Below are positions 2,958 through 17,183 of a stretch of 32,893 nucleotides of DNA, piece after piece. The stretch is taken from the UHGV virus genome UHGV-1353943; one strand, written 5' to 3'. Numbering within the stretch: the first letter of the stretch is position 1; each line of letters starts with the position of its first letter. Source of the stretch: a virus. A program made the position numbers and the translations under genes. The notes below the pieces were generated by a model, which did not search any database, was not told where the DNA came from, and saw only the letters and a program-made list of their open reading frames with translations.

Positions 2958-2980
2958 AATTAAATCCTTATTTTTCTAAA

Positions 2981-3364
2981 TCAGAATGGGATGGAATCGT
3001 CGTATACAGGGGTGTTCTGCTGGTTACTACTTTGCTGCTGCGGGCCATTTCCTGAAGCTGCAAATCCAATCTTTGCATTCAGTAATTCAAGAGTGATTGA
3101 TTGACCATTTTGCCCCTGATAAACATCAACCCTGATGTTTTCTCCGGTAATTTCCACAATGCCACCTTCAACAAGAACACTACGGTAGTAATCCGCTTGC
3201 GCTCCCGGCTTGGCAAATACAACGGCGCTGTAGTTTGTCCATTCTTTCTTTTTTGTCTGGCGATCGTAATACTGAACGCCAGCACGGATGTTGAATCCGA
3301 TATTTTCCCCGGCCTGAAACTCTCTTGCGGGCTTGTTTAGTCTTACAGTAATCGAATGTGCCAT
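2981..3364 (-). CDS. Single-stranded DNA-binding protein-like
   Basis: 127 aa ending in DDSIPF, like the acidic SSB C-terminal tail (DDDIPF); Q/N/G-rich linker before it; GAAGGAG RBS; start overlaps the Erf stop (TAATG). Confidence 0.55.
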   Translation of the reverse strand: MAHSITVRLNKPAREFQAGENIGFNIRAGVQYYDRQTKKKEWTNYSAVVFAKPGAQADYYRSVLVEGGIVEITGENIRVDVYQGQNGQSITLELLNAKIGFAASGNGPQQQSSNQQNTPVYDDSIPF

Positions 3365-3999
3365 TAAGCAGCCGCTCCTTCTAATTCGTCTCGTCTGATG
3401 TTGTAAACGTCCTGCGCTTTGTGCTGCTCAGGTGTGCCTTCGAGCATCTTCCACGCTTTGGCGAACGCCTGTTTAAGCTCTTCCACGGTGTTTTTCTGCA
3501 ATGCTGCGTCAGTGAATGCTTTTAGAACCTGTTCAGGTGTAGGTGATGGTTTTGATTGCTTTGCTGCTGCGTTCTGCTGATGTTTATGCTCGTCGGTATC
3601 TGCATCTTTCGCATCATCAATGCCGAACAAACCATTGAGGCAATACTTGCGTGCATAAGAGCTTGTAGCTCCCGTAACTTGTGCAGAATCCATTCCTTTC
3701 TTGCTTTCTTCCTCTCGTGCAAGAGCGGTTGCCGTATGACTGTTTTCGCCATCGGTAATAGTTGCCGTGGCTTTCACGTAATACCGATCACCAATCAACA
3801 CAACTTCATCGCTGATTGATAAAAACAGGCCATTCAGTAACGGCTTAACGCCTTCAAGAATGTCTTCGCAGCTTCTGTATTTATATTTGCCGAATGAGTT
3901 GTACTGATTCTTTGGCGCGTTCAGATTCTCCTGAATAGCTGCCAGTCTTGCGTAAAATTCTTTGCTCATATGATTGTTCTCAGAATGGACATGGCCCAA
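3364..3999 (-). CDS. erf: Erf-family ssDNA annealing (recombination) protein
   Basis: SYARKYCLNGLFGI core resembles the ERF superfamily; sits where lambda bet / P22 erf sit; start ambiguous (ATG 3999 or 3969). Confidence 0.65.
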   Translation of the reverse strand: MGHVHSENNHMSKEFYARLAAIQENLNAPKNQYNSFGKYKYRSCEDILEGVKPLLNGLFLSISDEVVLIGDRYYVKATATITDGENSHTATALAREEESKKGMDSAQVTGATSSYARKYCLNGLFGIDDAKDADTDEHKHQQNAAAKQSKPSPTPEQVLKAFTDAALQKNTVEELKQAFAKAWKMLEGTPEQHKAQDVYNIRRDELEGAAA

Positions 4000-4058
4000 G
4001 GAAATAACGCTGATTTAATACTTCAGTCTTTGCCGCATTTAAAAATACGCGAACACCT

Positions 4059-4229
4059 TCACGATCTCCCTTCTGGCGATACATTAACGCCTGCTGCGTG
4101 TACATGCGTCTCTGTAACTTGCTCTCCTTCACTGTGGTTGCAAGTGACATGAATATCTCCTTCGTTACCGATTAAATCTTTCATCTGACGAATGAATTCT
4201 TCGTCTGACCAGTTATCTGTAAAACTCAT
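4059..4229 (-). CDS. Hypothetical small protein (kil-position gene)
   Basis: 56 aa from the internal ATG at 4229, which forms an ATGA overlap with the cIII-like stop; identity unknown. Confidence 0.4.
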   Translation of the reverse strand: MSFTDNWSDEEFIRQMKDLIGNEGDIHVTCNHSEGEQVTETHVHAAGVNVSPEGRS

Positions 4230-4396
4230 GGACGGCCTTGTTGTTTCAAAATATCCCAAAGCTTTTCGAGCAAGCTTTTCATTCTTGGTTGTTTAAAGTC
4301 TGCTCCGGTTAAAATGTTTTTTCGTGAATGCTGTACCGATAAAATCGGGTTGAAAGGGCGAACCGATGCCGCCCCTGCAATAGCGAACTGTTGCAT
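4226..4396 (-). CDS. cIII: cIII-like protein (putative FtsH/HflB inhibitor)
   Basis: 56 aa from ATG 4396 with AAGGAG RBS; N-terminus MQQFAIAGA and SLLEKLWDILKQ resemble lambda CIII; correct position left of N. Confidence 0.5.
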   Translation of the reverse strand: MQQFAIAGAASVRPFNPILSVQHSRKNILTGADFKQPRMKSLLEKLWDILKQQGRP

Positions 4397-4465
4397 AGGA
4401 TGCTCCTTCTGTTTGATTGCATAACGAAAACGCCTCAAGTGAAGCGTTATTGGTATGCATATAAA

Positions 4466-4492
4466 AAGGCCCTCACACTGGAGGGCAAAGAA
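4466..4492 (-). terminator. Intrinsic terminator (GCCCTC-CAGTGT-GAGGGC plus TTTTTAT on minus strand), tL-like
   Basis: Strong GC hairpin and T-run on the minus strand between the membrane-protein gene and cIII. Confidence 0.6.
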
Positions 4493-4635
4493 GATTTCCA
4501 ATAATCAGAACAAGTCGGCTCCTGTTTAGTTACGAGCGACATTGCTCCGTGTATTCACTCGTTGGAATGAATACAAAGTGCAGTGTTTATTCTGTTGTTT
4601 GTGCCAAAAATAAAGGCCGACTATGCGTCCTGAAA

Positions 4636-5001
4636 TTACTTAACCAATGATGCTGCATATTCGATAAGGTAAAGTTTTGGAGCAAGCCAAATTTTCAGCC
4701 AGTCGAAATAATTGAAGAAAACAACAATAGAAGTAATCTCTATTCCTGATGTGACAAGTAGTGATAAAAGAACAATATCTGCATCATCTCCTTTATTCCA
4801 TGCAAAAATCATCAGATAAACACACGCTATAATCACCAATACACAGATAGCCTGAATTCCAGCTGATGATACGGCGTGCCACATCAAAAGCTGATGGATG
4901 ACATCAGGAATCTGTGCCTGGCTAAATGAAACAGCCGCGTCTATTCCATTGCTGGCTTTTTGCAGTAGTTCTACGAGAATCTTGTTTGCTTGTTCTTCCA
5001 T
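4636..5001 (-). CDS. Small membrane protein (two predicted TM helices); possible superinfection-exclusion-type gene
   Basis: 121 aa; hydrophobic stretches IQAICVLVIIACVYLMIFAW and IVLLSLLVTSGIEITSIVVFF; AAGGTGA RBS; AT-rich; terminators on both sides. Confidence 0.5.
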   Translation of the reverse strand: MEEQANKILVELLQKASNGIDAAVSFSQAQIPDVIHQLLMWHAVSSAGIQAICVLVIIACVYLMIFAWNKGDDADIVLLSLLVTSGIEITSIVVFFNYFDWLKIWLAPKLYLIEYAASLVK

Positions 5002-5049
5002 ATATCACCTTGATTGTAATAAGCATGAAATTATTTACGGCTAAAAAAT

Positions 5050-5080
5050 AAAGGCCACCATCAGGCAGCCTTGTTGTAAA
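5050..5080 (-). terminator. Intrinsic terminator (AAGGCTGCC-TGAT-GGTGGCCTT plus TATTTTTT on minus strand)
   Basis: Hairpin and T-tract read on the minus strand; overlaps the 3' end of ORF 5061..5312. Confidence 0.5.
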
Positions 5081-5312
5081 TGTTGCAGGTATCAAGTAAG
5101 TAATTAGATGGAGCGCCATAAATTATGAATTCATCGTTTGTCGGATCCATCTCCATCTCTTGGCCTATTGCCATTCTTGCGTCAGTGTCATCAGCGGCGA
5201 AGCATAAAACAGCCCACGCTCCCATTGTTTTAAAAAGAACTGCAATTGGCTGTGGTTTTACTGAATTTGCGTTAGCGCGAAAATCACAAATCGCACTTTC
5301 ATGAAATTCCAT
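5061..5312 (-). CDS. Hypothetical protein immediately downstream of N
   Basis: ORF 5061..5369; internal ATG at 5312 preceded by GAGGT RBS and clear of N. Confidence 0.4.
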   Translation of the reverse strand: MEFHESAICDFRANANSVKPQPIAVLFKTMGAWAVLCFAADDTDARMAIGQEMEMDPTNDEFIIYGAPSNYLLDTCNIYNKAA

Positions 5313-5320
5313 ATCTAACC

Positions 5321-5620
5321 TCAAATAAGTGGTTTGCTGCCTAATTTCATTTTCTGGCGACCAACACAAGTCATACCCATTTCACTGCGTGGCTTGCGGT
5401 AGTAAATACGATTCTGTTTACGCTCGACTTCTTCTTCCTTCTTGCAGCGAAGGCTTCCGAGTGATGCTGCTTTGTCTGCTCTGACGCAACCAGAGAGCTT
5501 TAGCGCAATTTTTCGCGCCAGTCGCTGCTCTTGCATTGCCTGTTCACGTTGAGCCTGTCTGCGTGCTCTGCGGCGATTTCTGGCGTTATCGTCAGCCAGA
5601 TATGTAATGACTACTGTCAT
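5321..5620 (-). CDS. N: Antitermination protein N
   Basis: 99 aa; N-terminal arginine-rich motif (NARNRRRARRQAQ) and C-terminus CVGRQKMKLGSKPLI close to lambda N; GGAGG RBS; nutL in its leader. Confidence 0.8.
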   Translation of the reverse strand: MTVVITYLADDNARNRRRARRQAQREQAMQEQRLARKIALKLSGCVRADKAASLGSLRCKKEEEVERKQNRIYYRKPRSEMGMTCVGRQKMKLGSKPLI

Positions 5621-5726
5621 GTTGACCTCCGATGATTGACTTTGGCGGTGACGCGCCGGGTGCTTATCTTCCGGTTGCCGTCGTGCAGCTGCACTTCACG
5701 TCACCCCAAAGCCAACTACTCTTTGG

Positions 5727-5770
5727 TTCCCGCATTTCGGCGGGACAATCCCATCAATGTTAAAGAGCCT
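5727..5770 (-). promoter_or_regulatory. nutL: nutL (boxA GGCTCTTTAACA, 13-nt spacer, boxB hairpin TCCCGCC-GAAAT-GCGGGA)
   Basis: BoxA-like sequence and stem-loop read on the minus strand in the N leader; the same boxB recurs at nutR. Confidence 0.65.
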
Positions 5771-5809
5771 GCCAATCTTTTCCGTTTGGCTTCCAGCGTC
5801 CTGCTGATG

Positions 5810-5845
5810 GCTTAAATTTAAGATCTCTTTAATTAATGGTCAAGA
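5810..5845 (-). promoter_or_regulatory. pL promoter (-35 TTGACC, 17-bp spacer, -10 TAAATT) overlapping TTAAGA-type operator half-sites
   Basis: Hexamers read on the minus strand upstream of the N leader; TTAAGATCTCTTTAA overlaps the promoter. Confidence 0.55.
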
Positions 5846-5911
5846 GTATTTTTGAAGAAAACTTAAATTTTCTTTCGTAACTTAAGTTTGGCTTTGATTT
5901 TTAAAGGAAAT

Positions 5912-5934
5912 AAAAAAAAGGGGCGAATGCCCCC
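5912..5934 (-). terminator. Intrinsic terminator just after the repressor gene (GGGGGC-ATTC-GCCCC plus T8 on minus strand)
   Basis: Hairpin followed by eight T on the minus strand, directly after the repressor stop codon. Confidence 0.6.
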
Positions 5935-6585
5935 TTATGGAAGGTTTGCTAGTTTTGCATCGACAACTACGCCGATGATTTTGCAGTTTCCGTTGATCTC
6001 GATCATCGGATATTGTGGGTTAAGTGGTTTTAGAAACTTCCTGCCTGCATCAATAACTAACTTCTTGAAAGTTGCCTCGTTTTCTCCTTCGAGCTTTGCA
6101 ACTACCAGTTTCCCGTTACGCGGCTCTACTTCAGGATCGACGAGTATTATCATTCCTTCAGGGATACTGAGACCGGCCGGAGCCGTCATTGAGTCTCCCT
6201 TCACGTCCAACCAAAACGAATCTTCTGAACAGTCTACGGTTGTATCGTACCAGTTATCTATTGCACGCTTATGATATGGTTCTACAGCTTCCATCCAGCA
6301 TCCTGCGCTCACCCAGCTAATCAGAGGGTATGACCCTCTTGGATCATGCCTACTGTGATAGGCAATGTTTGAAAGACTTTCCTCTCCTTTCATCAGATAG
6401 TCAGGGGAACACTTCAACGCATTAGCCAGGGCGAGAAGATTCTCTCCATTTGGCTCTGTCTCAGAGCGTTCCCACTGAGATATGGCAACATTAGACACGC
6501 CGACCATCTTTCCAAGTGCGGCCTGCCTGATCTTAAGTTCTTTTCTCCGAGCGCGAATGCGCTCTCCCATCAATTGAGTTTTCAT
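5935..6585 (-). CDS. c2: Prophage repressor, P22 C2-type (HTH plus S24 LexA-like peptidase domain)
   Basis: 216 aa; HTH (QAALGKMVGVSNVAISQWE), Ala-Gly cleavage site and GDSM...K Ser/Lys dyad; very close to P22 C2 as recalled. Confidence 0.9.
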   Translation of the reverse strand: MKTQLMGERIRARRKELKIRQAALGKMVGVSNVAISQWERSETEPNGENLLALANALKCSPDYLMKGEESLSNIAYHSRHDPRGSYPLISWVSAGCWMEAVEPYHKRAIDNWYDTTVDCSEDSFWLDVKGDSMTAPAGLSIPEGMIILVDPEVEPRNGKLVVAKLEGENEATFKKLVIDAGRKFLKPLNPQYPMIEINGNCKIIGVVVDAKLANLP

Positions 6586-6665
6586 AGTTAAGACATCTTA
6601 AATAAACTTGACTTAAGATTCCTTTAGTGGATAATTTAAGTGTTCTTTAATTTCGGAGCGAGTCT
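6586..6665. promoter_or_regulatory. OR region: divergent pRM/pR with three operator-like sites built on TTAAGA half-sites; pR -35 TTGACT (6608-6613), -10 ATAATT (6631-6636)
   Basis: TTAAGACATCTTAA, CTTAAGATT and ATTTAAGTGTTCTTTAAT read directly; the last matches a P22-type 18-bp operator and overlaps the -10. Confidence 0.65.
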
Positions 6666-6851
6666 ATGTACAAGAAAGATGTTATCGACCACTTCGGAAC
6701 CCAGCGTGCTGTAGCTAAAGCGTTAGGCATTAGCGATGCAGCAGTCTCTCAGTGGAAGGAAGTCATCCCAGAGAAAGACGCCTATCGACTGGAAGTCGTT
6801 ACAGCTGGCGCCCTGAAGTATCAAGAAAGCGCTTACCGCAAAGCGGCATAA
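6666..6851 (+). CDS. cro: Cro repressor
   Basis: 61 aa HTH protein (QRAVAKALGISDAAVSQWK) transcribed divergently from the repressor; GGAG RBS. Confidence 0.8.
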   Translation: MYKKDVIDHFGTQRAVAKALGISDAAVSQWKEVIPEKDAYRLEVVTAGALKYQESAYRKAA

Positions 6852-6857
6852 GCAAAT

Positions 6858-6902
6858 TGCTCTTTAACAGTCATGGTCCTCATTCCCGCCGAAATGCGGG
6901 AA
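6858..6902 (+). promoter_or_regulatory. nutR: nutR (boxA TGCTCTTTAACA, 13-nt spacer, boxB hairpin TCCCGCC-GAAAT-GCGGGA)
   Basis: BoxA is nearly the rrn-type consensus; boxB is identical to the nutL copy. Confidence 0.65.
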
Positions 6903-6959
6903 TACAACGCGCATAAGTTGATGCGCATAACTTCTTATTTGTTAAGGAAATACTTACAT

Positions 6960-7238
6960 ATGCAACTTACAAGTACTCGCAAGAAAGCGAATGCAATTAC
7001 AAGCAACATCCTGAATCGAATTGCTGTACGTGGTCAGCGAAAGGTTGCCGACGCGTTAGGGATTAATGAATCGCAAATTTCGCGATGGAAAGACAGCTTC
7101 ATCCCAAAAATGGGAATGCTTCTTGCTGTTCTTGAATGGGGTGTTGAAGACGAGGAGTTGGCGGAACTGGCTAAGCAAGTAGCCAGAATGCTGACAAAAG
7201 AAAAAGCCCCGAAGAACGGCGAATTCTTCGAGGCCTGA
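6960..7238 (+). CDS. cII: cII-like transcriptional activator (P22 c1 analogue)
   Basis: ORF 6873..7238; AAGGAAA RBS before ATG 6960; NESQISRWK...IPKMGMLLAVLEWGV close to lambda CII. Confidence 0.8.
   Translation: MQLTSTRKKANAITSNILNRIAVRGQRKVADALGINESQISRWKDSFIPKMGMLLAVLEWGVEDEELAELAKQVARMLTKEKAPKNGEFFEA
6993..7006 (-). promoter_or_regulatory. Candidate pRE-type cII-binding site (TTGC-N6-TTGC on minus strand)
   Basis: TTGCTTGTAATTGC read on the minus strand inside the 5' part of the cII-like gene, as at lambda pRE. Confidence 0.4.
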
Positions 7239-7272
7239 TGTAGAAAGACTGGATCAATCCACAGGAGTAATT

Positions 7273-7434
7273 ATGACAAAACGTCGTAAGAAATACCAGG
7301 AAAAAGAAGAGATTCGACACCCTGATTCACCTGAGGGATTAGTGGTAGCCGCAGCAAATAACAGGGCGTTCGCAGAGCGCCTTGTTGGTGTTTACAGACT
7401 AGCCAAAGCAGGAGTGAAACATGGGCGTCGTTAA
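7273..7434 (+). CDS. Small basic protein (53 aa), not in the ORF track
   Basis: AGGAG RBS 7 nt before ATG 7273; MTKRRKKYQEKEEIRH...; 14-nt overlap with the O-like gene start. Confidence 0.4.
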   Translation: MTKRRKKYQEKEEIRHPDSPEGLVVAAANNRAFAERLVGVYRLAKAGVKHGRR

Positions 7435-8251
7435 GTTAGCTGATTACAGGCCTCAACTGGAGGTCGTGGAGCATCGCGTGGCAGAACTCGAAGATGGCTA
7501 CACTCGGACTGCAAACACACTGTTAGAAGCCGCCATGCTTTCTGGGCTTACTCTACATCAGTTACTGATTGTTATGGCTGTGTGGCGCAAGACATACGGT
7601 TACAACAAAAAAATAGATTGGATCGGAAACGAACAGTTCGCTGAACTCACTGGCATGGCACCAACCAAATGCTCTACCGCCAAAAACGAGCTTATCAGAA
7701 TGGGAGTTCTCATTCAGGTGGGGCGTCAAGTTGGTATGAATACAAACATTTCCGAGTGGAAAACGAAAGTTAACGGATTCGGTAAAACATTTACTAATTC
7801 GGTAAAACAAAGCTTCACCAAATCGGTAAAAAGCAATTTACCGAATCAGTCAAACACAAAAGACAATATACAAAAGACAATAAATACAAATACCCCCTTA
7901 CCCCCTAACGGGGGCGGCGATGGGCAGGTTAAACCTGAACGTCGCAAGGCAGAACGAATCGACTATGAATCCTTCCTGAACGCCTACAACACCGAAGTCG
8001 GTGACAGACTGCCACACGCTGTTGCGGTCAACGAGAAACGCAAACGTCGCCTGAAGAAAATCATTCCGCAACTGAAAACGCCAAACGTGGACGGTTTCAG
8101 AGCGTATGTCAGGGCGTTTGTGCATCAGGCCAAGCCGTTTTACTTCGGAGACAACGACACGGGCTGGACGGCAGATTTTGATTACCTGCTGAGGGAAGAC
8201 TCGTTAACGGGAGTTCGGGAAGGGAAGTTTGCAGACAGGGGGATTGCATGA
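7421..8251 (+). CDS. Replication initiator (lambda O-like, iteron-binding)
   Basis: 276 aa; position between cII and the DnaB-type helicase; iteron array inside the gene; AGGAG RBS. Confidence 0.65.
7778..7900. repeat. Putative phage origin: three direct iterons (TTCGGTAAAACA x2, ATCGGTAAAAAG), one inverted copy (TTTACCGAAT), then an A-rich tract
   Basis: Repeats at 7778, 7798 and 7822 plus inverted copy at 7837, followed by AAAAGACAATATACAAAAGACAATAAATACAAATA; all inside the initiator ORF. Confidence 0.6.
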
Positions 8252-9624
8252 GACAGGATATCGAAGCGAGCGTTATCGGTGGCCTGCTGATTGGTGGATT
8301 AACTCCAACCGCCAGTGACGTTCTGGCAACGCTGGAGCCGGAAGCGTTTTCAATTCCGCTCTACCGGAAAGCCTTCGAGGTTATCCGCAAGCAGGCGAGA
8401 AACAGAAACCTAATCGACGCGCTGATGGTTGCCGAGGCGTGCGGAGAGGAGCATTTCACGTCAATCCTGATGACCAGCAAAAACTGCCCGAGCGCCGCAA
8501 ACCTGAAGGGATATGCCGGAATGGTCGCGGATAACTATCACCGCCGTCTGGTGCTGGAAATCATGGATGAAATGCGTGAACCAATTCAGAGCGGAACCAT
8601 CGATACATCGAGTCAGGCGATGGACGAGCTTGTAAAGCGTCTTTCAGCCATCAGAAAGCCCCGTGACGAGGTTAAACCTGTACGGTTAGGGGAAATCATC
8701 ACTGACTACACTGACACGCTTGACAGGCGTCTGAGGAACGGAGAAGAGTCAGATACCCTGAAGACCGGAATCGAAGAACTTGACGCCATCACCGGAGGGA
8801 TGAACGCGGAAGACCTGGTGATTATCGCTGCTCGTCCGGGTATGGGGAAAACCGAACTGGCGCTGAAGATTGCCGAAGGCGTTGCAAGCCGCGTTATTCC
8901 TGGTTCTGACGTCCGGCGCGGAGTGTTGATTTTCTCGATGGAAATGAGCGCATTGCAGATTGCAGAGCGAAGCATTGCCAACGCCGGGAGGATGTCGGTT
9001 AGCGTGCTGCGAAATCCTGCATCGATGGATGACGAAGGCTGGGCGCGTGTTGCTAACGGCATGAGTCAGCTTGCAGATTTGGATGTATGGGTAGTCGATG
9101 CCTCGCGGTTATCGGTCGAAGAAATACGCTCAATCGCAGAACGGCACAAACAGGAAAATCCAAACCTGTCACTCATCATGGCGGATTATCTTGGCCTGAT
9201 TGAGAAGCCGAAAGCAGACCGCAACGACCTCGCAATTGCTCACATCTCCGGAAGCCTGAAGGCGATGGCGAAAGACCTGAAAACACCGGTTATCTCCCTG
9301 AGTCAGCTTTCGCGCGATGTTGAGAAGCGACCAAACAAACGCCCGACAAACGCAGATTTGCGTGATTCAGGAAGCATTGAACAGGACGCAGACTCAATCA
9401 TCATGCTCTATCGGGAAGCGGTATATGACGAGAACAGTAGCGCCGCACCATTTGCTGAAATCATTGTGACAAAAAACCGTTTTGGCTCGCTTGGTACGGT
9501 TTACCAGCGGTTCTGCAACGGACACTTTGTTGCATGTGACCAGGATGAAGCCAGACAGATTTGCACAGCATCAAATGCGCCCGCTGCGCGTGGCAGACGA
9601 TATGCACAAGGGGCTGACGTATGA
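8248..9624 (+). CDS. Replicative DNA helicase, DnaB family (P22 gene 12-like)
   Basis: 458 aa; Walker A ARPGMGKT, Walker B-like [11 protein letters not shown], DnaB-type C-terminal motifs. Confidence 0.9.
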
Positions 9625-9651
9625 CCATCTACGTCACTGAGCTAATAACAG

Positions 9652-9680
9652 GCCTGCTGGTAATCGCAGGCTTTTTTATT
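9652..9680 (+). terminator. Intrinsic terminator after the replication genes (GCCTGC-TGGTAATC-GCAGGC plus TTTTTTATT)
   Basis: 6-bp GC stem and T-tract read directly. Confidence 0.6.
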
Positions 9681-9696
9681 TGGGGGAGAGTAAATC

Positions 9697-9903
9697 GTGG
9701 TTGAGTTGATTTTCTCTGCATTGAGGCTTCTCAGTGCTATGTGGATGGTGGCGACGTTCATTGTGGTTGCCAGCAGTTTTGTCCGGTTGGTAGGCGAAGG
9801 TAAAGACCTGGTGGGTGTGCTTTTCGGTAGCATTCTCCTGTGGGTGATTATCGGTGTTATGCCTGTTGTCGTAGCAAAAATGGCGTGGCGTTTTGTGAGT
9901 TGA
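9697..9903 (+). CDS. Small hydrophobic (membrane) protein, GTG start
   Basis: 68 aa, mostly hydrophobic; GGGGGAGAG RBS 6 nt before the GTG; its 3' end contains a 27-bp linker repeat. Confidence 0.4.
   Translation: MVELIFSALRLLSAMWMVATFIVVASSFVRLVGEGKDLVGVLFGSILLWVIIGVMPVVVAKMAWRFVS
9877..9903. repeat. 27-bp direct repeat, copy 1 (AAAATGGCGTGGCGTTTTGTGAGTTGA)
   Basis: Matches 10724..10750 with one mismatch; both copies lie just upstream of an RBS and ATG. Confidence 0.7.
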
Positions 9904-9920
9904 ACTGAGGGTAAGTATCG

Positions 9921-10211
9921 ATGGACGAATCAAGAAAGCAGTTTGAAGAATGGTTTAAAAACAAATATCACGTTTCAAGTGACGTGATGAAGATTATGCA
10001 CATCAAGGTCGAGATTGCATGGGAGGCATGGCAGGCATCGCGAGCAGCTATTGAACTGGATATCGACTGGCCCGAATCGAATGACAACTTTTGGAAAGAT
10101 GGTGAAGAAGGTGCTTATGCGATGGGTTATGAGGATGGGAGAGACAAAACGGTAATTGCAGTAATGAAAGCTATCAGGGCCGCAGGAATCAAAGAAAAGA
10201 ATTTCGATTAA
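9921..10211 (+). CDS. Hypothetical protein
   Basis: 96 aa ORF with GAGG RBS; inside the repeat-bounded insert. Confidence 0.5.
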   Translation: MDESRKQFEEWFKNKYHVSSDVMKIMHIKVEIAWEAWQASRAAIELDIDWPESNDNFWKDGEEGAYAMGYEDGRDKTVIAVMKAIRAAGIKEKNFD

Positions 10212-10343
10212 GCAAATATCACTTCAATAAATCGCTTTTAAGGCATCACAATCGCTCTGTAGCGATGTAAACGCGTGCAATGTATGCCGATTAGCAGCGA
10301 GAATGAAAAATGCGTCAGAATGCGTTTGAGGAGGTTTTAAGAA

Positions 10344-10559
10344 ATGAGTACGATAGCTGAACTTGTCAGGGCTAATTTTCGTGAAGAGTTGGTGCGTTGG
10401 TATCGGTATCGTTCATCGTCCAGTTTGCCGCTTGATGAGTTGTATGAGCATTCACCTGCCGCACGACGCTATCCGCGTGACCGTGTTCTTCGACGGTTGT
10501 CCAAACTCAACAATGAGTTTCAGCGCAACAGAATTATTCGGAGTCTGGATTTAAAGTAA
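10344..10559 (+). CDS. Hypothetical protein
   Basis: 71 aa ORF with strong GAGGAGG RBS; Arg-rich. Confidence 0.5.
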   Translation: MSTIAELVRANFREELVRWYRYRSSSSLPLDELYEHSPAARRYPRDRVLRRLSKLNNEFQRNRIIRSLDLK

Positions 10560-10569
10560 AGGAGTGAGT

Positions 10570-10725
10570 ATGACAAATCAGCAGCAAATAGAGTTCATCC
10601 TTGAGCAGATCCGAAAAATGCGAGAAAAGAACCAGCCAGACATGATGGAACTATGGAGACGGCAGCGGGAAGAATGGCACAGGCATATTTTTGGTGAGAG
10701 AAAATGGGATGGATGGAGCCTATAA
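10570..10725 (+). CDS. Small hypothetical protein (51 aa), not in the ORF track
   Basis: AAGGAG RBS 6 nt before the ATG; translated by hand (MTNQQQIEFILEQIRKMREK...). Confidence 0.4.
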   Translation: MTNQQQIEFILEQIRKMREKNQPDMMELWRRQREEWHRHIFGERKWDGWSL

Positions 10726-10750
10726 AATGGCGTGGCGTTTTGTTAGTTGA
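10724..10750. repeat. 27-bp direct repeat, copy 2 (AAAATGGCGTGGCGTTTTGTTAGTTGA)
   Basis: See copy 1; lies immediately upstream of ninB. Confidence 0.7.
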
Positions 10751-10757
10751 GGTGACA

Positions 10758-11168
10758 ATGAAGCAAACAATCTTCCTCCGAACTAAGCAACAACAGCAAG
10801 CTGCAATAAATGCCATCCTCGCAACACCACTCGATAAAGACAAGCCAGTCACCATCCGCATTACTGACTACAAGCGCAACCTTGACCAGAACGCAAAATT
10901 TCACGCGATGCTGGCGGATATCGCACGTCAGGTTCAATGGTGCGATAAGTGGTTAAAACCAGAACAATGGAAGGTTTTGTTGATTAGCGGTCATGCAGTG
11001 GCAACAAAGCAGGAAGCTGATGTTTTGCCCGGCCTTGAAGGCGAATACGTCAACATTCGCGAAAGTAGCGCGCAGATGAGTGTGAAGCGTATGGCAAGTC
11101 TGATTGAGTACACGACAGCATGGGCTATTGGTCAGGGCGTAAGATTTACCGACAGGAGGTACGAATGA
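10758..11168 (+). CDS. ninB: NinB-like recombination protein
   Basis: Resembles lambda NinB (SLDQN motif); GAGGTGA RBS before ATG 10758. Confidence 0.7.
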
Positions 11169-11341
11169 GACGACAGCGACGAAGTATCACCGACATCATC
11201 TGCGAAAACTGCAAATACCTTCCAACGAAACGCTCCAGAAATAAACGCAAGCAAATCCCAAAAGAATCTGACGTAAAAACCTTCAACTACACGGCTCACC
11301 TGTGGGATATCCGGTGGCTAAGACATCGCGCGAGGAAATGA
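11165..11341 (+). CDS. ninE: NinE-like small protein
   Basis: [20 protein letters not shown]... resembles lambda NinE; GGAGG RBS; ATGA overlap with ninB. Confidence 0.5.
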
Positions 11342-11691
11342 CAATGGATTATTCACAGTTAAGTGATTTTGAAATTAACAAGCGAGTATTTAAAGCGATA
11401 GTGGGGGCAATACCATTAGGTTATCCGCACAACGCAGATGGACGGTCTGTCGGCAATGAATCAAATGGTAATTATCGATGGTACGACTACTGCAATAATC
11501 CTGAAGACGCAGAGCCGATTATCGTAGAGAACAGAATTGGCATTATTCCAGCGCCAGAAAACGGATTATGGAAGGCAGCGCATAGAAAAGTTGGCAGTGA
11601 TAGTACCCCATATCATATGACTCAAGATGAAAACCCACTCCGCGCCGCCATGATTGTCTTTCTCATGATGCAGGACGCTAATAATGCTTAG
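11338..11691 (+). CDS. NinX-like (DUF2591-type) protein
   Basis: About 117 aa; order ninE-ninX-ninF as in P22-like nin regions; start chosen at ATG 11338. Confidence 0.4.
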
Positions 11692-11860
11692 CCCATCCCA
11701 ATCCCTTCAATACCAGAAAGAAAGCGTCGAGCGAGCTTTAACGTGCGCTAACTGCGGTCAGAAGCTGCATATGCTGGAAGTTCACGTGTGTGAGCACTGC
11801 TGCGCAGAACTGATGAGCGATCCGAATAGCTCAATGTACGAGGAAGAAGACGATGAATGA
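11684..11860 (+). CDS. ninF: NinF-like small Cys-rich protein
   Basis: 58 aa ([28 protein letters not shown]...CEHCC...), below the ORF-track size cut-off; matches lambda NinF as recalled. Confidence 0.6.
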   Translation: MLSPSQSLQYQKESVERALTCANCGQKLHMLEVHVCEHCCAELMSDPNSSMYEEEDDE

Positions 11861-12575
11861 GTTAATAAATGGCAATGCTATCAAAATGACAAGCATTGAA
11901 ATCGCTGAGTTGGTGGGTAAGCGTCATGACAATGTGAAACGTACCATCGAAACGCTGGCTAAAAATGGTGTTATCCGGCTTCCTCAAATTGAGGTTTCCG
12001 AAAGAATCAATAACTTAGGGTTCAATGTTCAGTACGAGCATTACGTCTTCGAAGGCGAACAAGGTAAGCGAGATAGTATTGTTGTTGTTGCCCAGTTGTC
12101 GCCAGAGTTCACCGCTCGCCTTGTTGACCGCTGGCGAGAGCTTGAAGAAGCTGCGGTTAATATCCCCAAAACGCTACCGGAAGCGTTGCGCCTTGCTGCT
12201 GATCTTGCTGAGCAGAAAATGCAGCTGGAAAACCAGCTCGCAATTGCCGCACCTAAAGTTGAGTTTGCCGATCGCGTTGGCGAGGCCAGCGGAATTTTGA
12301 TTGGAAACTTTGCAAAGGTTGTCGGTATTGGTCCAAACAAACTGTTTGCGTGGATGCGCGATCACAAAATCCTTATTGCTTCAGGTTCCCGGCGCAGTGT
12401 GCCAATGCAGGAATATATGGATCGCGGCTATTTCACAGTGAAAGAAACAGCAGTCAACACAAATCACGGAATACAGATATCGTTCACCACAAAAATCACC
12501 GGGCGTGGTCAACAGTGGCTGACCAGAAAGCTGCTCGATAACGGAATGCTGAAAGTAACAGGTGAGGCTGCTTAA
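11853..12575 (+). CDS. Phage regulatory protein, Rha-family N-terminus with antirepressor-type C-terminal domain
   Basis: 240 aa; MTSIEIAELVGKRHDNVKR is a Rha/pRha signature; C-terminal half resembles KilAC/ORF6C domains. Confidence 0.55.
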   Translation: MNELINGNAIKMTSIEIAELVGKRHDNVKRTIETLAKNGVIRLPQIEVSERINNLGFNVQYEHYVFEGEQGKRDSIVVVAQLSPEFTARLVDRWRELEEAAVNIPKTLPEALRLAADLAEQKMQLENQLAIAAPKVEFADRVGEASGILIGNFAKVVGIGPNKLFAWMRDHKILIASGSRRSVPMQEYMDRGYFTVKETAVNTNHGIQISFTTKITGRGQQWLTRKLLDNGMLKVTGEAA

Positions 12576-12865
12576 TGGCTAATCTACGCAAAGAAGCACG
12601 CGGCAGAGAATGCCAGGTACGTATTTACGGCGTATGCAATGGCAATCCTGAAACTACAGTTCTGGCACATTACCGGATGGCTGGAATTTGCGGAACGGGA
12701 ATGAAGCCTGACGACCTGATCGGTGCATGGGCTTGTAGTGCGTGTCACGATGAAATCGACCGACGCACCCATAATCTCGACAACAAAGACGCCAGACTTT
12801 ACCACCTCGAAGGCGTGATCAGAACGCAGGCGATACTGCTGAGGGAGGGGAAGATTAAGTCATGA
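12575..12865 (+). CDS. YbcO-like protein (DUF1364, putative nuclease)
   Basis: 96 aa; CQVRIYGVCNGNPETTVLAH...CSACHDEIDRR resembles the DLP12 YbcO family. Confidence 0.55.
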   Translation: MANLRKEARGRECQVRIYGVCNGNPETTVLAHYRMAGICGTGMKPDDLIGAWACSACHDEIDRRTHNLDNKDARLYHLEGVIRTQAILLREGKIKS

Positions 12866-13224
12866 ACGAATATCAGTTTGTGCTTCCATACCCGCCGTCG
12901 GTGAATACCTACTGGCGAAGACGGGGAAGCCAATATTACATAAGCGATAAAGGCCAGAAATACCGAAAAGACGTTCAGCAAATCATCCGCCAACTCAAGT
13001 TAGACATTTTCACCAAATCACGACTCCGTATCAAAGTCATCGCAGACGTTCCAGACTCCCGCCGCCGCGACCTCGACAACATCCTGAAAGGTTTACTCGA
13101 CTCCCTTATCCACGCCGGATTTGCGGAAGACGACGAGCAATTCGATGACATTCGCGTAATTCGTGGTGTGAAAGTACCAGGCGGACGGCTTGGAATAAAA
13201 ATTACCGAACTGGAGAACGCATGA
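12862..13224 (+). CDS. rusA: Holliday junction resolvase RusA
   Basis: 120 aa; PPSVNTYW...RRRDLDNILKGLLDSL...GGRLGIKITE matches RusA signatures. Confidence 0.8.
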   Translation: MNEYQFVLPYPPSVNTYWRRRGSQYYISDKGQKYRKDVQQIIRQLKLDIFTKSRLRIKVIADVPDSRRRDLDNILKGLLDSLIHAGFAEDDEQFDDIRVIRGVKVPGGRLGIKITELENA

Positions 13225-13409
13225 ACGCCACAATTCAAACGATACCAGAGCTTCTTATCCAGACACGAGGCAATCAGACCGAAGTGGCAAGGATGCTTTC
13301 CTGCGCAAGAGGAACAGTGCTCAAGTACAACCGAGACAGCAAAGGCGAGCGTCACGTAATAGTTAACGGCGTCCTGATGGTCAAACAGGGCAAGAGGGGA
13401 AGACGATGA
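13221..13409 (+). CDS. ninH: NinH-like protein
   Basis: 62 aa; TIPELLIQTRGNQTEVARMLSCARGTVLKY resembles lambda NinH. Confidence 0.6.
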   Translation: MNATIQTIPELLIQTRGNQTEVARMLSCARGTVLKYNRDSKGERHVIVNGVLMVKQGKRGRR

Positions 13410-14029
13410 GACTCGAAAGCGTAGCTAAATTTCATTCGCCAAAAAGCCCGATGATGAGCGACTCACCACGGGCTACGGCTTCTGACTCTCTTTCCGGTAC
13501 TGATGTGATGGCTGCTATGGGGATGGCGCAATCACAAGCCGGATTCGGAATGGCTGCATTCTGCGGTAAGCATGAACTCAGCCAGAACGACAAACAAAAG
13601 GCTATCAACTATCTGATGCAATTTGCACACAAGGTATCGGGGAAATACCGTGGTGTGGCAAAGCTTGAAGGAAATACTAAGGCAAAGGTACTGCAAGTTC
13701 TCGCAACATTCGCTTATGCGGATTATTGCCGTAGTGCCGCGACGCCGGGCGCAAGATGCAGAGATTGCCACGGTACAGGCCGTGCGGTTGATATAGCAAA
13801 AACAGAGCAGTGGGGGAGAGTTGTTGAGAAAGAGTGCGGAAGATGCAAAGGCGTAGGCTATTCCAGGATGCCAGCAAGCGCCGCATATCGCGCTGTAACG
13901 ATGCTAATCCCAAACCTTACCCAACCCACCTGGTCACGAACTGTTAAGCCGCTGTATGACGCTCTGGTGGTGCAATGCCACAAAGAAGAGTCAATCGCAG
14001 ACAACATTTTGAATGCGGTCACACGTTAG
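13406..14029 (+). CDS. Q: Late antiterminator Q (lambda type)
   Basis: 207 aa; sequence, length and position before pR' match lambda Q as recalled; zinc-binding Cys cluster present. Confidence 0.85.
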   Translation: MRLESVAKFHSPKSPMMSDSPRATASDSLSGTDVMAAMGMAQSQAGFGMAAFCGKHELSQNDKQKAINYLMQFAHKVSGKYRGVAKLEGNTKAKVLQVLATFAYADYCRSAATPGARCRDCHGTGRAVDIAKTEQWGRVVEKECGRCKGVGYSRMPASAAYRAVTMLIPNLTQPTWSRTVKPLYDALVVQCHKEESIADNILNAVTR

Positions 14030-14071
14030 CAGCATGATTGCCACGGATGGCAACATATTAACGGCATAATA

Positions 14072-14100
14072 TTGACTTTTTGAATAAAGTTGGGTAAATT
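14072..14100 (+). promoter_or_regulatory. Late promoter pR' (-35 TTGACT, 17-bp spacer, -10 TAAATT), overlapping the qut region
   Basis: Hexamers read directly; surrounding sequence is lambda-like. Confidence 0.7.
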
Positions 14101-14240
14101 TGACCAAACAATGGGTCAATTCGCTCGTTGTGGTAGTGAGGTAAAAAGAGGCGGCGCTTACTACCGATTCTGCCTAGTTGGTCACTTCGACGTATCGTCT
14201 GGAACTCCAACCATAGCAGGCTGAGAGGTCTGCAAAATGC

Positions 14241-14302
14241 AATCCCGAAACAGTTCGCAGGTAATAGTTAGAGCCTGCACAACGGTTTCGGGATTTTTTA
14301 TT
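14241..14302 (+). terminator. tR' terminator (long hairpin AATCCCGAAAC...GTTTCGGGATT plus TTTTTTAT); ends the short pR' (6S-type) transcript
   Basis: Extended inverted repeat and T-tract read directly; lambda-like. Confidence 0.75.
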
Positions 14303-14303
14303 T

Positions 14304-14378
14304 GGGTCAGTCGTATAAAGGTCATTACGGAAGGCTGTTAACCTTCTTATCGTGGTTCGAGTCCACGCTGTCCCGCCA
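14304..14378 (+). tRNA. tRNA-Asn-like (anticodon GTT), non-canonical D-arm
   Basis: Hand-folded: acceptor GGGTCAG/CTGTCCC (one T-T mismatch), anticodon stem GAAGG/CCTTC with loop CTGTTAA, T-arm CGTGG-TTCGAGT-CCACG, encoded CCA; D-stem only 3 bp. Confidence 0.5.
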
Positions 14379-14383
14379 AACAT

Positions 14384-14459
14384 GCTGGTTTAGCTCCAAT
14401 GGTAGAGCGGTCGCCTTGTAAGCGAATGGGTAGCGGTTCAAGTCCGTTAACCAGCACCA
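14384..14459 (+). tRNA. tRNA-Thr (anticodon TGT)
   Basis: Hand-folded 76-nt cloverleaf: acceptor GCTGGTT/AACCAGC, D-arm GCTC-CAATGGTA-GAGC, anticodon loop CTTGTAA, T-arm AGCGG-TTCAAGT-CCGTT, encoded CCA. Confidence 0.7.
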
Positions 14460-14701
14460 TAACTGAGCCGTAGCCACTGGCTGTCCTGAATTCATCAGTG
14501 ATAGTTACGCTGCGGCCTTCTACGCATGACCTTCGTGAAAGCGGGTGGCAAGAAGTTGCGCTAACAACCTCCTGCCGTTTTGCCCGTGCATATCGGTCAC
14601 GAACAAATCTGATTACTAAACACAGTAGCCTGGATTTGTTCTATCAGTAATCGACCTTATTCCTAATTAAATAGAGCAAATCCCCTTATTGGGGGTAAGA
14701 C

Positions 14702-15025
14702 ATGAAGATGCCAGAAAAACATGACCTGTTAGCCGCCATTCTAGCGGCAAAGGAACAAGGCATCGGGGCAATCCTTGCGTTTGCAATGGCGTACCTTCGC
14801 GGCAGATATAATGGCGGTGCGTTTACAAAAACAGTAATCGACGCAACGATGTGCGCCATTATCGCCTGGTTCATTCGTGATCTTCTCGACCTCGCCGGAC
14901 TAAGTAGCAATCTCGCTTATATAACGAGCGTGTTCATCGGCTACATCGGTACTGACTCGATTGGTTCGCTTATCAAACGCTTCGCTGCTAAAAAAGCCGG
15001 AGTAGAAGATGGTGGGAATCAATAA
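14702..15025 (+). CDS. S: Holin S (lambda class I; dual-start antiholin/holin MKM motif)
   Basis: 107 aa, near-identical to lambda S as recalled ([20 protein letters not shown]...). Confidence 0.9.
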
Positions 15026-15485
15026 TCAACGTAAGGCGTTCCTCGATATGCTGGCATGGTCAGAGGGAACTGATAACGGACGTCAGAAAACCAGAAATCA
15101 TGGTTATGACGTCATTGTAGGCGGAGAGCTATTCACTGATTACTCCGATCACCCTCGCAAACTTGTCACGCTAAACCCCAAACTCAAATCAACAGCCGCC
15201 GGACGCTACCAACTTCTTTCCCGTTGGTGGGATGCCTATCGTAAGCAGCTTGGCCTGAAAGACTTCTCTCCGAAAAGCCAGGACGCTGTGGCATTGCAGC
15301 AGATTAAAGAGCGTGGCGCTTTACCAATGATTGATCGCGGCGATATTCGTCAGGCAATCGACCGTTGCAGCAATATCTGGGCTTCACTGCCGGGCGCTGG
15401 TTATGGCCAGTTCGAGCATAAGGCTGACAGCCTGATTGCAAAATTCAAAGAAGCTGGCGGAACAGTCAGAGAGATTGAGGTATGA
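15009..15485 (+). CDS. R: Endolysin R (lytic transglycosylase, lambda type)
   Basis: 158 aa, near-identical to lambda R as recalled; overlaps the S 3' end. Confidence 0.9.
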
Positions 15486-15919
15486 GCAGAGTAACCGCGA
15501 TTATCTCCGCTCTGGTTATCTGCATCATCGTCTGTCTGTCATGGGCTGTTAATCATTACCGTGATAACGCCATTACCTATAAAGAACAGCGCGATAAAGC
15601 AACGTACATCATCGCTGACATGCAGAAGCGTCAACGTGATGTAGCAGAACTTGACGCCAGATACACAAAGGAGCTTGCTGATGCTAACGCGACTATCGAA
15701 AGTCTCCGTGCTGATGTTTCTGCTGGTCGTAAGCGCCTGCAAGTCTCCGCCACCTGTGCAAAGTCAACGACCGGAGCCAGCAGCATGGGCGATGGAGAAA
15801 GCCCAAGACTTACAGCAGATGCTGAACTCAATTATTACCGTCTCCGAAGTGGAATCGACAAGATAACCGCGCAGGTTAACTACCTGCAGGAATACATCAG
15901 GACGCAATGCCTGAAATAA
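15482..15919 (+). CDS. Rz: Spanin, inner-membrane subunit Rz
   Basis: 145 aa; N-terminal TM ([21 protein letters not shown]) as in lambda Rz; central part diverges. Confidence 0.8.
15681..15866 (+). CDS. Rz1: Spanin, outer-membrane lipoprotein Rz1 (embedded in Rz, +1 frame)
   Basis: 61 aa from ATG 15681 with AAGGAG RBS; lipobox LVVSAC, Pro-rich; nested in Rz. Confidence 0.7.
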
Positions 15920-15950
15920 TTTTTTTGCAAATCACAAAGTCCATTTAATG

Positions 15951-15976
15951 AGCCTCGCGATGCGGGGCTTTTTTTA
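15951..15976 (+). terminator. Intrinsic terminator after the lysis cassette (AGCCTCGC-GAT-GCGGGGCT plus T7)
   Basis: 8-bp stem and seven T read directly. Confidence 0.65.
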
Positions 15977-16124
15977 CATCTGAATTTCACAGCGCATCTC
16001 ACGCGCATATTACATCACCCGAGCCTTTCAGAAAGTTGAGCCTGAGAACTGCCGTATATGGTGGCGACCATCTCGGGGCGGCTTTTCTGTGAGACAGGCT
16101 CACTTTCTAAAAGGTAAAGACGCT

Positions 16125-16622
16125 ATGAAAGCAATCACGCTTTTTAATACACCGATCCGTGTTGATGAATCAGGAATGATCTGCCTCACTGATATGTGGA
16201 AAGCCAGTGGTAAAAGTGAATCTGAATCTCCGTACCACTACCTGCGAAACAAGCAGACCAAAGAGTTCTTAGCCGAGCTGGAGAAAAACCACGAATCTGT
16301 GGTTTTTACTGAGCGCGGTGTACACGGTGGAACATATGGCGGGAAGTTTGTTGCTTACGATTATGCGGCTTGGTTAAACCCCGGGTTCAAGTACGCGGCC
16401 TATAAAGTCCTCGATGACTACTTCACCGGAGAACTTCAGCATCGCAACAGCTTAAGTGCGCAGCTCAACATGAAATGTCATGAGTTTGACCAGAAGAAAG
16501 ACATGGCGAGCTTCTGCGGACAAGGGCTGGCAGCATGGCGCTATACGAAGCCAGTGTTGGTCGCTGAGATTAACTCCCTGGCTAACCAGCTGCAGATTAC
16601 GATCCCCGGGCTTCCGGGATGA
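16125..16622 (+). CDS. KilA-N domain protein; accessory gene
   Basis: ORF 16089..16622; AAAGGTAAAG RBS before ATG 16125; KilA-N-like N-terminus ending in YAAWLNPGF. Confidence 0.55.
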   Translation: MKAITLFNTPIRVDESGMICLTDMWKASGKSESESPYHYLRNKQTKEFLAELEKNHESVVFTERGVHGGTYGGKFVAYDYAAWLNPGFKYAAYKVLDDYFTGELQHRNSLSAQLNMKCHEFDQKKDMASFCGQGLAAWRYTKPVLVAEINSLANQLQITIPGLPG

Positions 16623-17136: not shown

Positions 17137-17165
17137 GGGATAACTTAACTGATATCCCTTTTAAC
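17137..17165 (+). promoter_or_regulatory. Inverted repeat GGGATA-N10-TATCCC followed by TTTTAA, just upstream of the HNH gene RBS
   Basis: Read directly; function unknown (attenuator or protein-binding site). Confidence 0.35.
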
Positions 17166-17183
17166 GGATAAACGGAGCCAACA

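Follow-up and report, generated by a model that had tools for sequence, protein, structure and literature searches.

A repeated 27-nt gene end as a probable boundary sequence for module reassortment upstream of ninB

The window, i.e., the whole stretch of DNA analysed here, comprises 32,893 nucleotides of the virus genome UHGV-1353943. Its variable zone lies between the gene of a DnaB-type replicative helicase and ninB, and the anatomy of this zone is directly observed (Table 1). Homologues of the helicase are annotated as replicative helicases in Kapi1, HK620 and E. coli prophages, with Pfam DnaB/DnaB_C. The ninA mini-ORF overlaps both of its neighbours: the stop codon of the helicase gene with its ATG (ATGA), and the start of TM68, the gene of a small hydrophobic protein, with its TGA. 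The terminator that the initial annotation had placed past dnaB was found, and it proved to be the already annotated tR2, lying inside ninA. Its stem of 8 bp contains 5 G-C pairs and is followed by TTTTTTATTT, with a folding energy of -14.1 kcal/mol. The sequence is annotated as 'tR2 terminator' in Nil2 (AJ413274) and HK620 (NC_002730); in the window, one C-to-T change (9672) makes the stem one pair shorter and the T-run longer. The identification as tR2 is based on a G+C-rich hairpin and a T-run located directly after the replication genes, and on the agreement with the annotated sequences. Tightly packed genes with overlapping stop and start codons have been described for lambdoid nin regions (PMC8022706). 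With tR2 directly after the replication genes and small genes overlapping through ATGA, the window resembles a lambda-type nin region, and no essential difference was found.

A terminator/promoter scan revealed no promoter-like site after tR2, and between 9900 and 10760 neither a plus-strand promoter-like site nor a terminator-like site. Since the genes 3' of tR2 have no promoter of their own, we infer that the small genes should be expressed only when transcription from pR reads through tR2. The earlier suggestion that the terminator sets TM68 under separate regulation thus gives way to gating of the pR transcript by readthrough or antitermination, which would be the classical logic of a nin region.

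Table 1. Features of the window that are discussed in the text.
Feature	Position	Strand	Description
Erf-family single-strand annealing recombinase	3364..3999	-	Pfam ERF, E=2.5e-44
DnaB-type replicative helicase gene	8248..9624	+	458-aa ORF; left anchor of the variable zone
ninA mini-ORF	9621..9704	+	27 aa, hydrophobic; same ORF called ninA in HK620 and Nil2
tR2 intrinsic terminator	9650..9683	+	Hairpin 9650-9673 and T-run, within ninA; terminator scan
TM68	9697..9903	+	GTG start, 68 aa, two hydrophobic segments; phrog_1165, E=5e-35, full length
R copy 1	9877..9903	+	Last 8 codons (KMAWRFVS) and TGA of TM68; G at position 21
g96	9921..10211	+	96 aa, acidic; PF26207 (Phage_phiTE_015); phrog_343, E=1e-31
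Second, shorter relic	10207..10222	+	At the g96/IG joint; ATTAAGCAAATATCAC, similar to ATGAAGCAAATAT where ninB starts
Intergenic block (IG)	10212..10343	+	Accompanies DUF7301 in Stx-type and A-type prophages
A-type/B-type switch point	10340..10360	.	Best estimate from mismatch maps; possible anywhere from 10340 to 10570
DUF7301 gene	10344..10559	+	71 aa, basic; Pfam PF23975, E=3e-25; phrog_1785
g51	10570..10725	+	51 aa, helical, charged; phrog_18758
R copy 2	10724..10750	+	Non-coding; begins at base 2 of the g51 stop codon, other frame; T at position 21
ninB	10758..11168	+	136 aa, Orf-family recombination mediator; PF05772, E=4e-54; right anchor

The three small ORFs between TM68 and ninB and the 68-aa ORF itself are all present as first described. 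TM68 was found in 107 phage records by tblastn, and the annotation of its Kapi1 homologue gives two transmembrane helices. For g96, the PF26207 assignment is precomputed for a protein identical to g96 and for all of its 100+ homologues; a direct profile search with a local copy of Pfam gave no match. An AF2 model of g96 built from a 33-sequence alignment was mostly helical (pLDDT 71) and returned no Foldseek match in the PDB better than E=4. The RNA fold of the IG that follows showed no significant structure (z=+0.29). The DUF7301 protein scored 88.8 bits against a profile cut-off of 27, and a literature search for this family found no paper. The exact g51 protein occurs in 351 blocks of a public collection. 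In all ten of the places listed, the next gene is NinB, or a g96-family gene followed by NinB, and DUF7301 lies upstream of g51 in nine of these ten. The four small proteins had no sequence matches in NCBIfam, PADLOC or the PDB, and no functionally characterised family was among their Pfam and PHROGs matches; the PADLOC search was also empty for ninA. NinB matches its Orf-family profile with 182 bits (cut-off 23.8) over positions 1-131 of 131. Besides the Erf-family gene, the minus strand carries an N-like ORF (5321-5620) with a weak match to Pfam N_peptide (E=8e-4), under the cut-off of the family.

The zone contains a 27-nt direct repeat, AAAATGGCGTGGCGTTTTGTKAGTTGA, hereafter R. A pattern search that allowed up to three mismatches gave just the two matches already noted in the window, and none was obtained in 100 dinucleotide-preserving shuffles. 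The copies are identical in 26 of 27 positions, the exception being position 21. In a repeat search the pair reached 32 nt, with 91% identity and a spacing of 847 nt; the bases beyond the 27-mer are merely a common TGA. Only copy 1 lies within a coding sequence; copy 2 is non-coding and in a different frame, so that the two agree as DNA and not as protein. Both copies lie at a gene or module boundary, either at the stop-codon end of TM68 or directly past the g51 stop. They are also, as had been noticed at the outset, followed shortly by a Shine-Dalgarno-like sequence and an ATG, namely GAGGG...ATG (start at 9921) after copy 1 and GGTGACAATG (start at 10758) after copy 2. The distance from the end of R to the next gene start is 7-17 nt, which puts R just 5' of the ribosome site.

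The origin of R can be traced. R is the 3' end of TM68 in about 120 of 138 related loci, and all of its occurrences are at places that have, or once had, TM68; copy 2 is a 27-nt non-coding relic of this gene end. The first 20 nt of R are unchanged even in Salmonella homologues of TM68 with 41% protein identity, in which the adjacent codons differ. The notion of a 'linker' at a module boundary was therefore partly correct: R behaves as a lambdoid boundary sequence and yet is not free-standing, being the end of TM68 in most of these loci.

In Kapi1 and HK620 the order is TM68-R-ninB with one copy of R, the TM68 gene being unannotated in HK620. A single copy abutting ninB, which the initial annotation had proposed to look for in relatives, thus exists in these phages and in other loci. 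The counter-scenario, with two copies everywhere and no single-copy junction, was not seen: R is single in 138/138 related loci, most of which were found by the search with R, so that the 100% conservation of R in this set is circular and the profile around it descriptive only. The unbiased samples are those anchored on ninB and on TM68. Upstream, the neighbour of R in the 138 loci is TM68 (about 120) or g51 (17), and downstream it is g96 (77), ninB type b (36), ninB type a (12), IG (9) or something else (4); as many of the loci are near-duplicates from related isolates, these counts are not independent events. TM68 was seen with all downstream classes and g51 with g96, ninB-a and ninB-b, so that nearly all combinations are present, and the only sequence common to them on that side is R. 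The contexts of TM68 and g51 share only the 27 nt, with homology running from AAAATGG to TGA. The g51-R joint recurs in 17 other loci; it was not found in a one-genome-per-species collection. R is missing from Nil2 and 933W-type phages. Among 125 starts of ninB-a, R is directly upstream in 19, and 36 have no R within 3 kb (loci with the full 3 kb upstream).

Position 21 adds information on the descent of the two copies. Next to g96 the ratio is 74 G to 3 T, and next to ninB-a it is 9 T to 3 G; the base is associated with the downstream module without being fixed to it. Each copy in the window has the allele typical of its downstream partner, which argues that it arrived with this neighbour and was not duplicated in place.

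The two halves of the zone are each collinear with a different arrangement. The A-type has the order helicase-ninA/tR2-TM68-R-g96-IG, and window positions 9621-10349 are 97% identical to an A-type prophage of E. coli E6 (L142). The order of the common B-type is tR2-DUF7301-g51-R-ninB-ninE; two such loci (L137 and L140) are 98.4-98.5% identical to window positions 10330-11379 without gaps. The homology of the B-type to the window covers 9621-9693 and resumes from 10330 on, with R kept, a pattern that places the replacement of TM68 exactly between tR2 and R. L142 is identical to the window from 10284 to 10349 and divergent beyond. L137 has mismatches at 10335 and 10339 and is then identical up to 10610. 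The switch point given in Table 1 is based on few polymorphic sites, which are variable among B-types too. No locus spans both halves except a near-identical contig of an independent short-read assembly (Logan SRR5677826, L143, 1825 bp), which is 99.95% identical to window positions 9545-11369 and contains both copies of R. It is the only other public contig with two copies; the arrangement is otherwise absent from 50,697 phage records, 5,426 E. coli genomes and about 240 loci.

Taken together, R, a gene end with a second copy kept as a relic, probably acts as a boundary sequence for the reassortment of modules, and the window is probably a joint between an A-type and a B-type arrangement. In lambdoid phages, TM68 lies between tR2 and the nin genes, with R as its conserved 3' end. 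For the order of events and the recombination pathway, we infer the following scheme. In the B-type lineage, the DUF7301-g51 cassette would have replaced the body of TM68 (window-equivalent 9694-9876), and the last 27 nt of the gene would have stayed behind as a non-coding relic 5' of ninB. As R is the sole sequence common to TM68- and g51-bearing genomes at this place, it would serve as a short patch of homology. There, the Erf/NinB proteins of the phage or the RecA of the host may recombine genomes by homologous or relaxed-homologous exchange, so that TM68 or DUF7301-g51 on the upstream side is combined anew with g96, one of the two ninB types or IG-DUF7301-Lar on the downstream side. The window would have two copies because an A-type left half was joined to a B-type right half. 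Judged from the alignments, the copies would most simply have been united by one crossover, within the shared DUF7301 gene or at its 5' edge. As for the reciprocal product, tR2-DUF7301-Lar, the candidate O111/O121 prophages proved to be TM68-R-IG-DUF7301-Lar.

Short or diverged homologies are recombined by Rad52-like recombinases, among them an Erf-family enzyme of phage D3; Red-beta needs a pairing segment of at least 23-27 bp, compared with 31-34 bp for RecA (PMC3945230). With 27 nt and a mismatch at position 21 (20 and 6 perfect positions), R is at or below this length, so that exchange within R is plausible at most. Illegitimate joins that spread later may account for some of the assortments, and an ancestor resembling the window could have given rise to the Kapi1-type or B-type arrangements by deletion.

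The interval was at first regarded as recently acquired cargo, i.e., the 820-bp g96-IG-DUF7301-g51 segment would be one cassette that recently entered a Kapi1-like TM68-R-ninB arrangement via R on both sides. The empty site with one R is known, the corresponding span of Kapi1 is that of the window minus exactly 847 bp, and the G+C content of the interval is somewhat lower than that of the window (44% versus 50%). However, this entry requires a donor in which R flanks the same cassette, and L143 was the only example in the collections searched. The interval is moreover a composite of parts with different closest relatives, each collinear with its outside flank: the left part with the TM68 block of the A-type, the right part with the ninB-ninE block of the B-type. 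In agreement with this, the SNP patterns of the flanks show co-inheritance of the left flank with g96 and of the right flank with g51. Arms of 27 nt are also far poorer substrates than the homology of about 230 bp in DUF7301, and entry as a single unit is therefore unlikely. Formally, a direct repeat around an insert, single where the insert is missing, is also what a target-site duplication or the end repeat of a mobile element would leave. No transposase, integrase or terminal inverted repeat was found within the interval or near it; the base at position 21 differs between the copies, as expected from their separate neighbours; and the right copy with g51 is widespread without the left copy. 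A mobile element is effectively refuted by these features. Misassembly of this window alone is unlikely as well, since L143 reproduces the arrangement independently, and the chance that the repeat is due to either cause is minute.

A functional role would explain in another way why R is retained, either as a cis-acting element of translation or RNA (coupling or re-initiation) or as a site for protein binding. Its invariable position beside the ribosome site and the constancy of its first 20 nt in the diverged Salmonella homologues fit such a role. The same 20 nt, however, code for KMAWRF, which includes the single-codon residues M and W, and R is restricted to places where TM68 is or was. Neither copy has a stable or unusual RNA fold (z=+1.41 and -1.37), and an Rfam search at a permissive threshold gave two chance-level matches only. 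Furthermore, g96 and ninB occur in many phages without R upstream, which means that R is not an obligatory cis-element. We consider such a role quite improbable. A broader version, in which R and the invariant ninA/tR2 block are kept as an 'adapter' and delimit a slot reserved for cassettes, with translational hand-over and a landing pad for Erf/NinB, is very doubtful; if true, the slot between helicase and ninB would be akin to a primitive cassette-exchange site.

Viewed as the probable boundary sequence, R has known counterparts. That short conserved boundary sequences underlie lambdoid mosaicism is an established proposal (Clark et al. 2001; Susskind and Botstein 1978, as summarised in PMC2327257 and PMC3029335). 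Like these sequences, R is short, lies at a gene boundary of the nin region and is common to phages with differing flanking modules; two upstream module classes combine with at least four downstream ones across it. Unlike them, it has a traceable origin in the 3' end of one gene, the body of which was replaced, and is present twice in one genome. In the mycobacteriophages Island3 and Brujita, a direct repeat of about 50 bp surrounds an indel and is single in the relative; the authors were unable to say whether the segment had been lost or acquired, and they appealed to general recombination acting on short boundary sequences (PMC3029335). The window likewise has a direct repeat that brackets a segment missing, with one copy, in a relative, whereas the mycobacteriophage case concerns another phage group and a longer repeat, and no population-wide assortment was shown there.

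Morons are inserts in phage genomes that consist of a promoter, a gene and a terminator. The interval shares with them small accessory genes that only some of the relatives possess, but these form part of the pR operon without a promoter or terminator of their own, which sets it apart from morons. The window shows an ordinary process in clean form, with a boundary sequence of a known kind, and the current understanding is unchanged by this locus. Its value lies in being an unusually legible case of a lambdoid mosaic joint that forms and persists, for which public data contain not only the recombinant but also its two parental arrangements and the empty site. These forms, together with the traceable origin of the boundary and the phage's own Erf/NinB, make the locus a convenient natural system in which recombination between very short homologies can be measured.

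A second, shorter relic lies at the joint between g96 and IG. In one related locus (L006), g96 continues straight into the ATG of ninB at this sequence, and in nine loci and L147 the sequence comes after R and the ninB ribosome site.

The 27-mer AAAATGGCGTGGCGTTTTGT(G/T)AGTTGA, here called R, lies at the two places given in the initial annotation; a search of the 32.9-kb window with up to three mismatches allowed gave no further match, and none of 100 shuffled sequences contained one. The copies lie 847 nt apart. The open reading frames listed there (68, 96, 71 and 51 aa, then ninB) were also all found. Because copy 1 is coding and copy 2 is non-coding and in another frame, their identity is a DNA-level relic, with no protein motif in common. 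Both copies also stand in a 1,825-bp contig built from unrelated public reads (Logan SRR5677826, L143; 99.95% identity to window 9545-11369), so the two-copy arrangement is real.

Features of the locus between the helicase gene and ninB
Feature	Coordinates	Remarks
ninA mini-ORF, 27 aa	9621-9704	hydrophobic; overlaps helicase stop (ATGA) and TM68 start
Terminator-like hairpin and T-run	9650-9683	
TM68, 68-aa ORF	9697-9903	GTG start; two hydrophobic segments; full-length phrog_1165 member
R copy 1	9877-9903	coding: final 8 codons (KMAWRFVS) and TGA of TM68
g96, 96-aa ORF	9921-10211	PF26207
DUF7301 gene, 71-aa ORF	10344-10559	PF23975
g51, 51-aa ORF	10570-10725	
R copy 2	10724-10750	non-coding; starts at second base of g51 TAA stop; frame different relative to g51
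ninB	from 10758	Pfam NinB match, full length

The interval between the copies had been read as one recently acquired insert; it is rather a join of two pre-existing blocks. Window 9621-10349 is collinear (97% identity) with an E. coli E6 prophage of the order tR2-TM68-R-g96-IG-DUF7301' (A-type; IG, an intergenic block), and beyond 10349 that prophage has a divergent sequence. Over 10330-11379 the window is collinear with two B-type prophage loci (L137 and L140), at 98.4-98.5% identity and with no gap, the former having no mismatches over 10340-10610. Among the loci compared, none except L143 spans both halves. A single crossover joining an A-type to a B-type genome would be the simplest way to obtain the two copies; it is best placed at 10340-10360, with a range of possibility anywhere in DUF7301 to 10570. 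Insertion of a single cassette between two linkers would instead presuppose a donor already built in this way, and the searches turned up none. The window type could also have given rise to the Kapi1 type by deletion between the R copies, and to the B-type by deletion of 9694-10329. A mycobacteriophage indel flanked by a repeat of about 50 bp is directly comparable to the R pair, and the paper describing it likewise does not decide between gain and loss of the segment (PMC3029335).

In the B-type order (helicase-ninA/tR2-DUF7301-g51-R-ninB), homology to the window covers 9621-9693, ends three bases 5' of the TM68 start codon and restarts at R. DUF7301-g51 has probably taken the place of the TM68 body, the final 27 nt of which were left as R. 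The earlier reading of a module-boundary linker was right in kind, the linker being a gene-end relic. The B-type order is a common one: a protein identical to g51 is listed in 351 blocks of a public collection, and among the 10 places displayed NinB came next in all, directly or after a g96-family gene, with DUF7301 immediately upstream in nine. TM68 itself is mosaic: its body is very different in HK620, mEp213 and H-19B while the tR2 block and the last ~70 nt are the same. In a Salmonella phage (146851_sal5, L145 ~880-890), the A-run with which R begins is one base shorter, and the TM68 homologue is frameshifted to a 104-aa ORF.

The predicted empty site, with a single-copy R abutting ninB, was found in two genomes. 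Kapi1 has the order helicase-ninA/tR2-TM68-R(T)-ninB, with a single R 7 bases 5' of the ninB ATG, and its matching span of 1,054 bp is 847 bp shorter than the 1,901-bp query. The junction in HK620 is the same, apart from one mismatch in R. When the scan was anchored on the ninB start rather than on R, R was directly upstream in 19 of 125. Related loci were collected by scanning a viral collection for R and adding prophage loci from other searches, two mismatches being allowed. Exactly one R was present in 138 loci and two in none; as most of the 138 came from the search with R, and near-duplicates are frequent among them, these counts describe a pattern and not numbers of events. Upstream of R stood TM68 (about 120 loci) or g51 (17), and downstream g96 (77), ninB type b (36), ninB type a, the window's type (12), IG preceding DUF7301 (9) or other sequence (4). 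Via R, g51 is joined to g96 and both ninB types, and TM68 to every downstream class. Genomes with TM68 and genomes with g51 have no sequence but R in common here, so that such combinations require either exchange within R or independent joins made repeatedly at one and the same base. Position 21 of R goes with the downstream module, though not invariably (G 74, T 3 with g96; T 9, G 3 with ninB-a), and both copies in the window bear the allele typical of their own downstream neighbour.

Part of lambdoid mosaicism has been explained in print by homologous recombination at short sequences, conserved at flanks or boundaries (PMC2327257, PMC3029335). R (27 nt; 20+6 between the window's copies) is at the lower limit of the measured pairing length for recombination (23-27 bp for Red-beta, 31-34 bp for RecA; PMC3945230), and Erf and NinB are both encoded in the window. 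The boundary-sequence idea reportedly stems from Clark et al. 2001 (HK620) and Susskind & Botstein 1978, as cited by later papers. The locus is a clear new example of this known phenomenon; a linker traceable to a gene end, an interval joined from two blocks, and a terminator and mini-ORF that are the known tR2 and ninA refine the earlier reading. That R is a functional adapter has a low probability. Even the distant TM68 homologues of Salmonella have the first 20 nt of R unchanged, but these encode KMAWRF, so protein constraint largely explains the invariance. The RNA fold at either copy is unremarkable and R has no Rfam match; in Nil2 and in phages of the 933W type, g96-family genes stand directly after tR2, with neither TM68 nor R between, and the majority of the 125 ninB starts lack R directly upstream. 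This argues against an obligatory role.

A strong terminator and a small gene after dnaB had been taken to suggest separate regulation. Both exist, but the hairpin is the same in sequence as the annotated tR2 of HK620 and Nil2 and lies wholly within the ninA mini-ORF, and this nin-region layout is the classical arrangement (PMC8022706). A separate transcription unit was not borne out: no promoter-like site was found after tR2, and TM68 and all downstream genes are predicted to be part of the pR transcript, dependent on tR2 readthrough. Since translation stopping near tR2 is reported to suppress termination (PMC4824070), ninA translation might modulate readthrough into the nin genes. B-type prophages retain the ninA ORF with a different C-terminus, and there too it overlaps the next gene, DUF7301, by ATGA. 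At 9672 the window has a C-to-T change in tR2 relative to five relatives compared base by base, and C is also present in the aligned HK620, mEp213 and sal5-type Salmonella phage copies; the last stem pair is lost and the T-run is longer (GCAGGCTTTTTT against GCAGGCCTTTTT).

The four small proteins (TM68, g96, DUF7301, g51) matched only families of unknown function, NCBIfam, PADLOC and PDB sequence searches gave nothing usable, and neither did a Foldseek search with an AlphaFold model of g96 (pLDDT 71). The g51 position after DUF7301 is taken in Stx-type phages by a Lar-like gene for restriction alleviation; this hints that the slot may carry host-interaction genes, but it tells nothing about g51 itself.

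A second, shorter boundary relic was seen at 10207-10222: the g96/IG joint there repeats the opening 11-13 nt of ninB (ATGAAGCAAA[TAT]). An O111 prophage has this ninB-start relic on both sides of an IG-DUF7301-Lar block (L147 1190-1203 and 1747-1760), and in another prophage g96 runs at the same sequence directly into the ninB ATG (L006 1797-1812). A perfect 7-bp inverted repeat in IG (ATCGCTCTGTAGCGAT, 10245-10270) has no T-run and is changed in the O111 copy; folding statistics point to no function for it. The E. coli E89 locus (L005, NZ_CP121157, 1990-2380) has a permuted, partly duplicated order. After helicase-tR2-DUF7301-g51 come the 9 nt that open R, joined to a 99-bp copy of the 3' end of the helicase gene; another tR2, TM68, a complete R, g96, IG and another DUF7301 allele follow. 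The joint resembles the product of a short-homology event (TTTGT). An ATG at 10704 starts a 154-aa frame (10704-11168), stop-free through R copy 2 into ninB, and a gene caller started the NinB of L143 at an in-frame ATG close by (151 aa). The longer form is probably a calling artefact, since the 136-aa form already covers the whole Pfam NinB profile.

The window is a lambdoid phage genome, with genes for cI, O, a DnaB-type helicase, NinB, NinX, Q and an Erf-family annealing protein. Its early region is similar to CUS-3, HK97, Kapi1 and HK620, and its late region to the contractile-tail module of vB_EcoM-689R2 and SEN34; the hybrid joins 1-17190 (early and lysis, HK97/CUS-3/Kapi1-like) to a vB_EcoM-689R2/SEN34-like structural module at 18000-32893. 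Five Chi sites (GCTGGTGG) are present at 19573-32711, every one on the plus strand. A nuclease-like NYN domain (Pfam E=9e-12) is encoded in the pL operon region, by a 215-aa ORF on the minus strand (1293-1940).
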